IMG/VR virus record: IMGVR_UViG_3300024344_003081
From: a virus
Taxonomy: Duplodnaviria; Caudoviricetes
Direction: 5' to 3' (one strand)
Length of the DNA: 64,000 bases
A program made the translations under genes and the position numbers. Positions 45,753-47,910 of this stretch are shown one piece after another (within the stretch, counting starts at the first letter, position 1; the number at the start of each line of letters is the position of its first letter). The notes under the pieces are model-generated. The model was not told the origin of the DNA. It saw only the letters and a program-made list of their open reading frames with translations, and did not search any database.

Positions 45753-46101
45753 TGAATATGCTAGTTTTGACTTCGGTTTTTCCGCAGTAGATGATGAAGA
45801 ATATAAAGCAAAAACTACAGAAGTAGAAAAAAAGATTGAACAAGTAGAAGCAAAATCAAAAGATTTTTCGGCATTAGAAAAGAAAATAGATTCTGCTATT
45901 AAAGAAATCGGTTATAAAAAAGATTATTTAGAAGAAAAATATGTAGAAGATATGAGCAAAATTGAACAATTAATTTTACCTCTTTTATATAATCTTATGA
46001 AAAATCCAGATAAGGATTATATTTATTGGCCGAATCGTGAAGAAATTATTACTAAACAAATAGAAAAAATTAAAGATGTGACTCAAGATTTATCTAAATA
46101 G
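45736..46101 (+). CDS. Conserved hypothetical protein
   Basis: FDFGFSAVD...LILPLLYNL.KNPDKDYIYWPNR. Confidence 0.65.
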   Translation: MAQIPDEYASFDFGFSAVDDEEYKAKTTEVEKKIEQVEAKSKDFSALEKKIDSAIKEIGYKKDYLEEKYVEDMSKIEQLILPLLYNLMKNPDKDYIYWPNREEIITKQIEKIKDVTQDLSK

Positions 46102-46104
46102 TTT

Positions 46105-46445
46105 TATCGATGATACTGTAGAGTAGCATTTAAGACATCGGTGCGATTCCGATCAGCTCCACCAAAGGAACATCAATGAGTAGTGCAGATATGGCCATAT
46201 TAGTAGTATTAATTGTAATTGGCATAATTATGACGGGAACTTATTTTTATTTTGGTGGGTGATTCTTTGGAGGGGCTGTAATAGAATTCGATTGGATGTG
46301 ATTATACAGAGGAGATCATCTTGACAGATGTAAAATGTCATTTAAATTAATCGCAAATAATAACGATTATTATTCAGCACAAGTGGCATTAGCCGCTTAA
46401 TCGCTGGCGGGCTTATGATTGTGCCTTGGAACAGAAACAATCAGA
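46105..46445 (+). ncRNA. ssrA: Circularly permuted (two-piece) tmRNA: acceptor piece ~46105-46164, coding piece 46272-~46445, tag ANNNDYYSAQVALAA at 46353-46400
   Basis: T-arm ATCGG-TGCGATT-CCGAT and CAGCTCC-A-CCA (to 46164) lie upstream of GGGGCTG (46272); acceptor stem has the G3:U70 alanine pair; tag ends LAA*; outer boundaries approximate. Confidence 0.9.
46176..46262 (+). CDS. 28-aa single-TM peptide inside the tmRNA intervening segment
   Basis: AAGGAA RBS; MSSADMAILVVLIVIGIIMTGTYFYFGG*. Confidence 0.55.
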   Translation: MSSADMAILVVLIVIGIIMTGTYFYFGG

Positions 46446-46464
46446 CACACACAACACACACACA
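46445..46464 (+). repeat. AC-dinucleotide-rich tract before an RBS
   Basis: ACACACACAACACACACACA then TAAGGAG. Confidence 0.8.
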
Positions 46465-46476
46465 TAAGGAGAAAAT

Positions 46477-46704
46477 ATGTCTAATCCATATGAATTAAGA
46501 TTTAGACTTTTAGAGATGGCTTCTGGTTATCTTTATGATCAACAGCAAAAACAAACACAATTCGCTATTGATGCATGGGAATTTGCAAAAGAAGAAGGTA
46601 CAGCAAATATGGAGTTGTTTAAAGACCTCCAACCCAAAAATTATACTATTGAAGACATAAAGAATAAAGCTACTGAACTTTATGAATTTGTTGAAAAAAA
46701 ATAA
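46477..46704 (+). CDS. Conserved small hypothetical protein
   Basis: MSNPYELRFRLLEMA...KATELYEFVEKK; strong RBS. Confidence 0.7.
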   Translation: MSNPYELRFRLLEMASGYLYDQQQKQTQFAIDAWEFAKEEGTANMELFKDLQPKNYTIEDIKNKATELYEFVEKK

Positions 46705-46747
46705 TTGGCGCACCCCATCTGTAATGGATGGGGTTCTTCAGGAGAAA

Positions 46748-47140
46748 ATGATCAGCTTAACAGAAAAAGCCGCTAGTAAAATATTAAGCATTATGAAAGA
46801 CCAAAAAGTATCTGGTGAGACAGTATTACGGGTTGGAGTTAAGGGCGGAGGATGTTCAGGATTTACTTATACAGTAGACTTTGATACTAGAAAAGGAAAG
46901 TTTGATTTAGAGTTTGAATCATATGGTTTAGGAATTTTATGTGACAAAAAGAGTCATCTATATATTAAAGGCACGGAAATTGATTGGTCAGATGATTTAA
47001 ATGATAGAGGATTAAAATTTAACAATCCTTCAGCTAAAGGTTCTTGTGGCTGTAGGACTTCTTTTATGTACGAACATACGGAGACTAAAACTGAAACAAC
47101 ACCTAATTGGATGGGAATGAACAATGCAGACTACTTGTGA
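46748..47140 (+). CDS. iscA: HesB/IscA A-type Fe-S carrier
   Basis: GGGCSGFTY...GTEID...FNNP..KGSCGCRTSF; RBS CAGGAG. Confidence 0.9.
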   Translation: MISLTEKAASKILSIMKDQKVSGETVLRVGVKGGGCSGFTYTVDFDTRKGKFDLEFESYGLGILCDKKSHLYIKGTEIDWSDDLNDRGLKFNNPSAKGSCGCRTSFMYEHTETKTETTPNWMGMNNADYL

Positions 47141-47519
47141 ATTAAAAATAACAGAAAAGGCCGCAGTAGAATTTAAACAAATGTGTATTGGTGAAGATAA
47201 ACATTGGGCGGATGCATATTTAAGAATAGGAGCAAATTCAGGCGGATGTTCTGGTTGGAAGTATAGTTTAGATTATGAAGATACAGTAGAGTCTACAGAT
47301 TTAATTTTCGAACAGCATGGTGTTAAATTAGTAGTAGACGAATACATTCTTAATGATATAATTGGTGATGTAGAAGTAGATTATAAAGTAGGAAATTTAG
47401 TAGAACAAGGATTTATATTTAAACGGCTCAAATTTGAGCATGTCTGTGGATGTGGAGAGAGTTTTACACCAGTAAAAGATATCCCTGCAGACGGTAAACA
47501 AAAATTAGGATGGAATTAA
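47124..47519 (+). CDS. iscA: Second HesB/IscA-family Fe-S carrier
   Basis: ITEKAA...GGCSGWKY...CGCGESF. Confidence 0.85.
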   Translation: MQTTCELKITEKAAVEFKQMCIGEDKHWADAYLRIGANSGGCSGWKYSLDYEDTVESTDLIFEQHGVKLVVDEYILNDIIGDVEVDYKVGNLVEQGFIFKRLKFEHVCGCGESFTPVKDIPADGKQKLGWN

Positions 47520-47520
47520 T

Positions 47521-47910
47521 ATGGCATATTCAGAAAAAGTTATAGATCATTTTCAAAATCCAAAAAACATCGGAAGTTTTGATAAAAATGATCCAACTAT
47601 TGGAACTGCTCTTGTAGGCGCTCCAGAGTGTGGCGATGTAATGAAATTACAGATAAAAGTGGGTGATAATGGAACAATTGAAGATGCTAAGTTTAAAACA
47701 TTTGGTTGTGGAAGTGCAATAGCAAGTTCTTCACTTGCAACTGAATGGGTAAAGGGAAGAACTTTAGATGAAGCATGGGCGGTAGAAAACACCGAAATCG
47801 TAGAAGAATTATCATTGCCTCCAGTAAAAATTCATTGTTCTGTTCTTGCAGAAGATGCGATTAAAGGAGCAATAGCAGATTATAAGAATAAACATGAAAT
47901 AAATACTTAA
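47521..47910 (+). CDS. iscU: Fe-S scaffold IscU
   Basis: YSEKVIDHFQNPKN, APECGDVMKLQI, FGCGSAIASSS, LPPVKIHCSVLAEDAIK. Confidence 0.95.
   Translation: MAYSEKVIDHFQNPKNIGSFDKNDPTIGTALVGAPECGDVMKLQIKVGDNGTIEDAKFKTFGCGSAIASSSLATEWVKGRTLDEAWAVENTEIVEELSLPPVKIHCSVLAEDAIKGAIADYKNKHEINT

Follow-up and report, generated by a model that had tools for sequence, protein, structure and literature searches.

The spacer between the two pieces of a permuted tmRNA gene in a T4-like marine myophage very probably contains a gene of its own: a micro-ORF of 28 codons, judged genuine from comparison of related phage sequences, whose predicted product is a single-pass membrane peptide. The wider proposition, that the spacer holds a micro-gene for such a peptide of about 28 residues, that this gene is read from the tmRNA precursor or from a read-through transcript, and that it works by the mechanism set out further on, we regard as probable. 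The gene is unannotated and, as far as found, unpublished. It lies in a stretch of viral DNA of 64,000 nucleotides (IMG/VR record IMGVR_UViG_3300024344_003081; Duplodnaviria, Caudoviricetes), which is called the window in what follows and is numbered from its first letter.

The permuted (two-piece) tmRNA occupies positions 46109-46400 of the window, where the full Rfam model RF04321 scores 94.3 bits against a cut-off of 47 and is matched over model positions 1-213; ARAGORN too calls a permuted tmRNA here. As in the RF04321 class, the 3' strand of the acceptor stem and the T-arm lie upstream of the 5' strand, CCA is encoded (46162-46164), and the tag frame begins with Ala and closes with a hydrophobic ALAA-type tail and a stop codon. 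The parts of the locus are these:

46109-46164, + strand: acceptor piece (P2 5' strand, T-arm, acceptor-stem 3' strand and the encoded CCA at 46162-46164), from the Rfam RF04321 alignment, ARAGORN and the sequence.
46165-46271, + strand: spacer (intervening segment) of 107 nt, a large insertion between RF04321 model positions 63 and 87, whose removal is needed before the CCA 3' end and the 5' G become available.
46166-46169, + strand: Shine-Dalgarno (SD) core AGGA, 6 nt 5' of the ATG and also within the 5' arm of the closing stem, from the sequence and the SD enrichment test.
46176-46262, + strand: micro-ORF of 28 codons and a TGA (46260-46262), specifying a single hydrophobic helix, from translation and from family and clade statistics.
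46263-46271, + strand: 5' leader of the coding piece, TTCTTTGGA, 9 nt, the 3' arm of the closing stem, predicted to pair with CCA+AAGGA (46162-46169), from the MFE fold of the junction and from duplex energies.
46272-46440, + strand: coding piece (acceptor-stem 5' strand, P2 3' strand, PK1, tag frame, downstream helices), from Rfam (to 46400), ARAGORN and an RNA contig; the 3' end at 46440 is approximate, and ARAGORN prolongs the piece to 46491.
46353-46400, + strand: tag reading frame, ANNNDYYSAQVALAA, and its stop, from ARAGORN.

The 5' GGGG of the coding piece begins at 46272, and AAGGAA (46165-46170) follows directly on CCA. The initial annotation of this DNA had described a 107-nt spacer nearly filled by a ribosome-binding site, an ATG at 46176 and an ORF for a single transmembrane helix; sequence and translation bear its coordinates out exactly, and 9 nt separate the stop codon of the ORF from the 5' G. 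(Two further details of the locus: a promoter-like TTGACA-16-TAAATT, matching at 10 of 12 positions, lies at 46321-46348, in the coding piece just 5' of the tag frame, and is probably a by-product of conserved tmRNA sequence; and a CA-rich tract, acacacacaacacacacaca, at 46447-46467, between the tmRNA and the next gene, varies in length by 2 nt among RNA contigs and shows a depth spike of about 300x in one oligo-dT run, probably through low-complexity cross-mapping.) A scan for promoters and terminators around the locus yielded nothing convincing, promoter-like matches being barely above shuffle expectation.

The window is the replication module of its phage, with genes all on one strand, a GC content of about 31%, and genes for a gp43-type polymerase, a gp46/SbcC-like protein, a gp41-type helicase and a class II RNR. 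Immediately upstream of the tmRNA is a gene for a RuvC-like resolvase, whose nearest cultured relative is that of Pelagibacter phage Mosig, at only 39% amino acid identity. IscA/IscU genes lie downstream: two tandem genes of IscA/HesB type and an IscU/NifU-N gene, directly 3' of the tmRNA at 46682-47910, constitute a phage iron-sulphur cluster assembly module. No glutamine riboswitch was found in the window at Rfam gathering scores. Blastn searches of phage records with the whole locus, and with the coding piece alone, gave zero matches; the Mosig tmRNA, searched in the same way, matched only itself. The nearest genome found is a 1.9-Mb bacterial MAG, G001, which contains a one-piece tmRNA of its own and one contig 95% identical to the window region (the contigs concerned are C40, with L320 and L329, and C49, with L321). 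Since G001 has its own one-piece tmRNA, the permuted tmRNA belongs to the phage-like DNA; the contig may be either a mis-binned phage contig or a hint of a host outside the Alphaproteobacteria.

The peptide specified by 46176-46262 is MSSADMAILVVLIVIGIIMTGTYFYFGG, 28 residues long, with a best 15-residue Kyte-Doolittle mean of 3.15 and one hydrophobic segment of at least 18 residues, the length of a membrane span; it is predicted to insert into the membrane and to cross it once, and it contains neither Lys nor Arg. Pfam assigns it to no family, and the look-alike offered by a protein atlas, the YoaK family at 0.85, falls below that tool's trust level and establishes no homology. Small single-pass membrane proteins such as the YoaK family do resemble it in size (about 30 residues), in having one hydrophobic helix, and in being missed by gene callers; we know of none that is sited inside a stable-RNA gene. 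An exact look-up in a collection of 15 billion proteins found none of seven spacer peptides (the window's and six from related contigs), which signifies only that gene callers skip such ORFs. Tblastn of two spacer peptides against phage records returned nothing, which does not imply absence, short hydrophobic queries being probably masked. A three-member alignment of the window peptide, run against metagenome and viral contigs, matched patterns of which none was confirmed by tblastn, and the known members L001 and L002 were missed too.

Relatives of the locus itself are more informative. The upstream RuvC-like protein led to 80 related viral contigs, and among its closer relatives (at least 70% amino acid identity) 22 have a tmRNA at the same position. 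Two pattern scans for a CCA...GGGG junction enclosing a spacer of 55-115 nt added at least about 240 contigs; ARAGORN confirmed at least 208 permuted tmRNAs, with at least 179 unique spacers. (Proportions of viral spacers quoted here are shares of this pattern-scan sample, that is, of spacers of 55-115 nt among the matches listed, and are not prevalences.) In a tree built on the mature tmRNA parts alone, the clade of the window's tmRNA (tags ANN.DY...ALAA) is monophyletic with a support of 98. The initial annotation had allowed that homologous spacers might prove to vary with no ORF conserved. What is found instead is that every one of the 25 unique mature tmRNAs of the clade has an ORF of 27-33 codons in its spacer, with zero ORF-less members inside the clade. 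These ORFs start 4-12 nt past CCA, end 1-9 nt short of the 5' G and fill 81-100% of the spacer; the longest ORF in other spacers fills a median of 36%.

Does such an ORF bear the marks of a coding frame? In the 24 unique spacers of the clade, 708 codons include no stop in the ORF frame, compared with 101 stops in the +1 frame and 26 in the +2 frame. T is concentrated at codon position 2 (54%, against 29% at position 1 and 38% at position 3), and the means over 19 residues on the Kyte-Doolittle scale (KD19) range from 1.39 to 3.33 across the clade, 22 of 24 peptides reaching at least 2.0. Conservation of frame, of hydrophobicity and of dN/dS in homologous phage loci had been named at the outset as the check on the spacer ORF. 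Frame and hydrophobicity are kept; the third measure is less emphatic, pN/pS being 0.60 in a sister family of peptides and 0.79 in the window's own family, below 1 only moderately. Selection thus acts chiefly on frame, length and hydrophobicity and less on the exact sequence, a common situation among small membrane helices.

The two families make the point at closer range. The sister family (consensus MEKKLMWLAI...GYDFR) occurs on 60 viral contigs, and each of its 59 full copies is flanked by a CCA end and a 5' GGGG, which places it in a tmRNA spacer. Its 41 unique coding sequences are every one of them 93 nt long, with zero indels, and have accumulated 163 parsimony steps, distributed 58/23/82 over codon positions 1/2/3; the probability that so many random changes would generate no stop is 2e-5. 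The window's own family, enlarged by a DNA pattern search of viral and metagenome assemblies, comprises nine unique coding sequences, all open, of 27, 28 or 30 codons, with in-frame indels only and with replacements nearly all hydrophobic-for-hydrophobic; its copies, too, all lie in tmRNA spacers. No free-standing copy of either family was found, in a scan that is insensitive for peptides so short.

The skeptical reading is that there is no gene here: a U-rich structured spacer happens to be open in one frame and is hydrophobic through its base composition. The spacers are indeed AT-rich (31% GC) and T-rich, which favors hydrophobic codons, and a stop codon comes at no cost from the conserved leader motif TTGAT; mononucleotide shuffles of the clade spacers produce an ORF of at least 27 amino acids in 4% of cases. 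The same shuffles show all of the features jointly in only 0.75%, however, while they are present in all 24 unique spacers of the real clade. Composition also leaves unexplained why stops are missing from one frame only and why T is in excess at codon position 2 alone, or why substitutions in the sister family are apportioned 58/23/82 with no stop among them. Indels within the ORF are in-frame, and the one indel outside it is not; SD cores are enriched in front of the ORF (p=6e-12, see below). Finally, spacers of similar length without such an ORF are to be seen in other phage tmRNAs: among the matches listed, none of 152 other viral permuted-tmRNA spacers contains a hydrophobic, spacer-filling ORF. 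We consider chance opening of the frame very unlikely.

Within the samples searched, the ORF is confined to phage tmRNAs. In 47 alphaproteobacterial tmRNAs, the 20 longest included, there is no such ORF and the median spacer is 36 nt; across 151 genomes of Alphaproteobacteria most tmRNA matches are 185-240 nt long, as against 292 nt in the window. Genome contigs with the long-spacer junction pattern had no permuted tmRNA among the 120 matches listed (ARAGORN), nor among the 20 of these checked by Rfam; the matches sampled are thus due to chance. A hydrophobic spacer ORF does recur in three unrelated phage tmRNA lineages (L099, L117 and L249/L292, with tags ANDEQFALAA, ANDELFAIAA and ANDEKFALAA among the three), in two of them behind a strong AAGGAG. 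These ORFs, of 22-29 codons, fill their spacers and are located as follows:

L099, 1163-1249: spacer ORF.
L117, 2675-2743, - strand: spacer ORF.
L249, 6559-6624, - strand: spacer ORF.
L292, 8402-8467, - strand: spacer ORF.

The trait has changed state at least four times on the tmRNA tree, which suggests, as far as sequences can tell, that the arrangement has been gained repeatedly.

Inside the clade, the contents of the spacer behave like a cassette. Comparison of the window with contigs L002, L003 and L008 shows 96-97% identity over the mature tmRNA and 84-92% at four-fold degenerate sites of the adjacent gene; the spacers reach only 58-73%, and their peptides cannot be aligned with the window's. 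One tag sequence is found with several peptide types, and one peptide type with several tags. (In L157, L192 and L193, whose tag is ANFFAANNSDYSPARVALAA, the tag frame is longer by five N-terminal residues and the type of spacer peptide is unchanged.) Spacers that diverge far more than neutral sites nearby must either have been exchanged between the conserved arms by recombination or have been subject to strong diversifying selection; the membrane-helix ORF is retained despite the divergence in every comparison within the clade. The thought that the tmRNA might be degenerate, with the ORF its sole live part, was discarded: its mature parts vary less than neutral sites do. The hypervariability of the peptide suggests a conflict-related or accessory role.

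How the ORF is placed with respect to the processing of the tmRNA is best appreciated from the predicted fold. In all permuted precursors, ORF-bearing or not, the trailer that follows CCA pairs (MFE fold) with the leader that precedes the 5' G, prolonging the acceptor stem. In ORF-bearing spacers the 5' arm of this closing stem consists of CCA and the SD, often with the ATG as well, and the 3' arm of the last codons, the stop and the leader, so that the whole ORF is enclosed in a stem-closed segment of the precursor of a stable RNA. The closing stem is a predicted one, and it covaries: arms pair better with their own partners than when swapped with those of other cassette types (-12.6 versus -6.9 kcal/mol, p=6e-12). 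A core SD (AGGA, GGAG or GAGG) is found 4-7 nt 5' of the ATG in 18 of 27 ORF-bearing spacers, compared with 9 of 152 ORF-less trailers (p=6e-12), and a strong core is missing in about a third of the ORF-bearing spacers. The SD starts 1-2 nt past CCA, and 1-9 nt separate the stop from the RNase P site. A leader-peptide attenuator was also contemplated and set aside: there is no terminator-like site in the spacer or just past it, and the sole conserved helix is the closing stem, which is common to ORF-less precursors.

Some RNA evidence can be brought to bear on the precursor. (A technical note: these data are contigs only, from four marine metatranscriptome runs belonging to four studies; they derive from relatives at 90-99% identity, and DNA carry-over is possible.) In a 489-nt contig from an oligo-dT/SMART library, the adaptor ...GTATCAACGCAGAGTACGGG, which we take to be the SMART template-switch oligo that marks an RNA 5' end, is fused exactly at 46272, and the contig continues through the downstream 75-codon gene. 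The end is given by a single contig, belonging to a relative that is about 98% identical over the aligned part (469 nt, with 9 mismatches), and is placed to within ±1-2 nt; so placed, it matches the predicted RNase P site within 1-2 nt. Contigs from two other studies cover the T-arm and CCA and continue into a different spacer ORF, starting MEKAGIILV, with the same acceptor piece and SD. (That peptide type, in RNA contigs at 46131-46173 from runs X2 and X4, is absent from the viral contigs collected.) In one contig an alternative spacer of 87 nt links the acceptor piece to the coding piece, at a depth of about 2, compared with 9-28 for the coding piece; over all, among these contigs of relatives, the depth of the coding piece is 3-10 times that of spacer-containing contigs. 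This fits a precursor that exists and is rarer than the mature coding piece. The window's own spacer has near-zero read coverage in the four RNA runs, which is uninformative, the relatives there having other spacers.

We can now offer a scheme. The spacer would constitute a stem-closed slot: one arm is made up of CCA, the SD and (mostly) the ATG, the opposite arm of the final codons, the stop and the RNase P leader, and the remainder of the ORF is looped out between them. A ribosome would load on the SD co-transcriptionally, before the 3' arm exists. With the SD next to CCA and the stop next to the RNase P site, a ribosome in the act of initiating or terminating would cover both strands of the acceptor stem, and translation and maturation of one molecule should consequently exclude each other. 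Closure of the stem would then hide the SD, and the precursor would be processed to the two pieces of the tmRNA, so that every transcript would yield peptide in a brief burst and a tmRNA afterwards. (Sequestration of the SD in the predicted stem could alternatively mean that the ORF is poorly translated.) Fast exchange or diversification of the gene would fit a membrane role of the peptide at a conflict interface, for example in superinfection exclusion or in modulating a host membrane protein. The parts of this best explanation that we infer are translation and its competition with processing, insertion of the peptide into the membrane, and what the peptide does. The initial annotation had proposed that the precursor may double as an mRNA, with maturation either competing with translation or releasing a mini-mRNA for a small membrane effector. 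This proposal is borne out in part: comparative evidence speaks strongly for a genuine membrane micro-peptide gene in the spacer, and competition between translation and maturation would fit the anatomy; release of a mini-mRNA is less likely, since a precursor trimmed back to CCA would have its SD clipped or removed.

The same anatomy invites a reading in which the peptide is a mere by-product: translation alone would matter, timing or throttling tmRNA maturation by opening the closing and acceptor stems. The SD, ATG and stop are, after all, within the arms of the closing stem and beside both processing sites, peptide sequence is poorly conserved between cassette types, and pN/pS values of 0.6-0.8 are in the same vein. 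A pure ribosome-occupancy device has no need of a membrane-helix product, however, and it is precisely this that is kept: cassette types that cannot be aligned share one design, with a short polar N-terminus, 18-20 hydrophobic residues and an aromatic belt (and the KD19 values already given, at least 2.0 in 22 of 24). Codon position 2 is the most constrained in the sister family (23 of 163 steps), replacements exchange one hydrophobic residue for another, and spacers without an ORF mature without any such device. We judge a purely cis-acting ORF to be unlikely. Nor are we much inclined to see in the peptide a fixed partner of the tmRNA pathway, one that modulates the membrane protease of tagged proteins or brings the precursor to the membrane; that, too, is unlikely, and if anything a shade more so. 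Its attraction lies in the strict linkage of the ORF to tmRNA spacers (59 of 59 copies of the sister family and all copies of the window's family, none found free-standing, by a scan that is itself insensitive for such short peptides), in the emergence of the trait in at least four phage tmRNA lineages, and in precedent: lambda CIII and Bacillus SpoVM, for instance, are small peptides with a modulating effect on FtsH. The spacer peptides do not match such modulators, however, Pfam offering nothing and the protein atlas only its lead to the YoaK family; hypervariability and cassette-like exchange are more in keeping with an accessory or conflict gene than with a fixed partner; the corresponding slot in Methylophilales phage Melnitz has a basic, non-membrane ORF; and many phage tmRNAs have none. 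The micro-gene for a membrane peptide, read from the precursor or a read-through transcript, accommodates these observations best. In its most committed form, an exchangeable stem-closed slot whose expression is coupled to maturation would furnish a peptide that acts together with the phage tmRNA (for example in membrane-bound proteolysis of tagged proteins) or excludes competing phages; we put this forward as a tentative extension, on the doubtful side of possible.

Where does this place the locus among known systems? Two-piece tmRNA genes of cellular Alphaproteobacteria were reportedly described by Keiler, Shapiro and Williams in 2000 and by Sharkady and Williams in 2004. They share with the window the order of acceptor piece, intervening sequence and coding piece, the encoded CCA, and the pairing of trailer with leader; unlike the window, they have short spacers and, in none of the 47 sampled, a hydrophobic ORF that fills the spacer.

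Two-piece tmRNAs have been published for phage Melnitz and for pelagimyophages such as Mosig (PMC9004378, a paper in which the word "intervening" occurs nowhere). In these, as in the window, a permuted ssrA of alphaproteobacterial type lies between same-strand protein genes of a T4-like marine phage, and the Rfam scores are comparable (94 bits for the window, 94 for Mosig, 113 for Melnitz). The spacer of Mosig differs in being too short for an ORF; that of Melnitz, about 142 nt long, has GGAG, an ATG and an unannotated ORF of 54 codons, MFKWLSKTRLVV..., which is basic and of non-membrane type:

L580, 1565-1748 (MZ577097, at about 46077-46260 of the record): Melnitz spacer ORF.

The last 13 or so codons of this ORF, with the stop, lie inside the mature coding piece; the Melnitz record has only "SsrA" at 45984-46436, 453 nt, and its locus tags skip from _86 to _89. 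A 2025 paper on a tmRNA database (PMC11915505) lists as unusual spacer contents only a tRNA gene and a repeat element, and nowhere mentions an ORF. The impression recorded in the initial annotation, that the arrangement had not been described, agrees with the literature searched (these two papers included), in which no description of it was found.

The closest analogue is the intervening sequence of 23S rRNA with its S23p ORF in Coxiella burnetii and Leptospira (PMC4990558): there, too, an ORF sits in a stem-closed, excised segment of a stable-RNA precursor. The S23p system involves 23S rRNA and RNase III, and the window tmRNA, RNase P and 3' trimming. S23p is a soluble protein of about 120 amino acids that forms a defined Pfam family and that, as the abstract of PMC4990558 suggests, is not made in vivo, whereas the products of the clade spacers are predicted membrane peptides of 27-33 amino acids that match no family and for which selection on the frame is demonstrable. 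With no Pfam match, and with tmRNA as the host RNA, the spacer ORF is an analogue of S23p and not a member of its family.

The spacer of two-piece tmRNAs has been treated as disposable so far, and annotation pipelines lay a single "tmRNA" feature over it, as in the Melnitz record. One can think of it instead as a recombination-friendly slot between highly conserved arms, and of the locus as a natural case of one transcript choosing between being an mRNA and being a stable RNA; if the reading in which the slot is coupled to maturation is true, this would be a new class of bifunctional precursor, at once stable RNA and mRNA. That a clade of abundant marine phages keeps a selected, fast-changing gene in this place points to a hidden class of phage small proteins.
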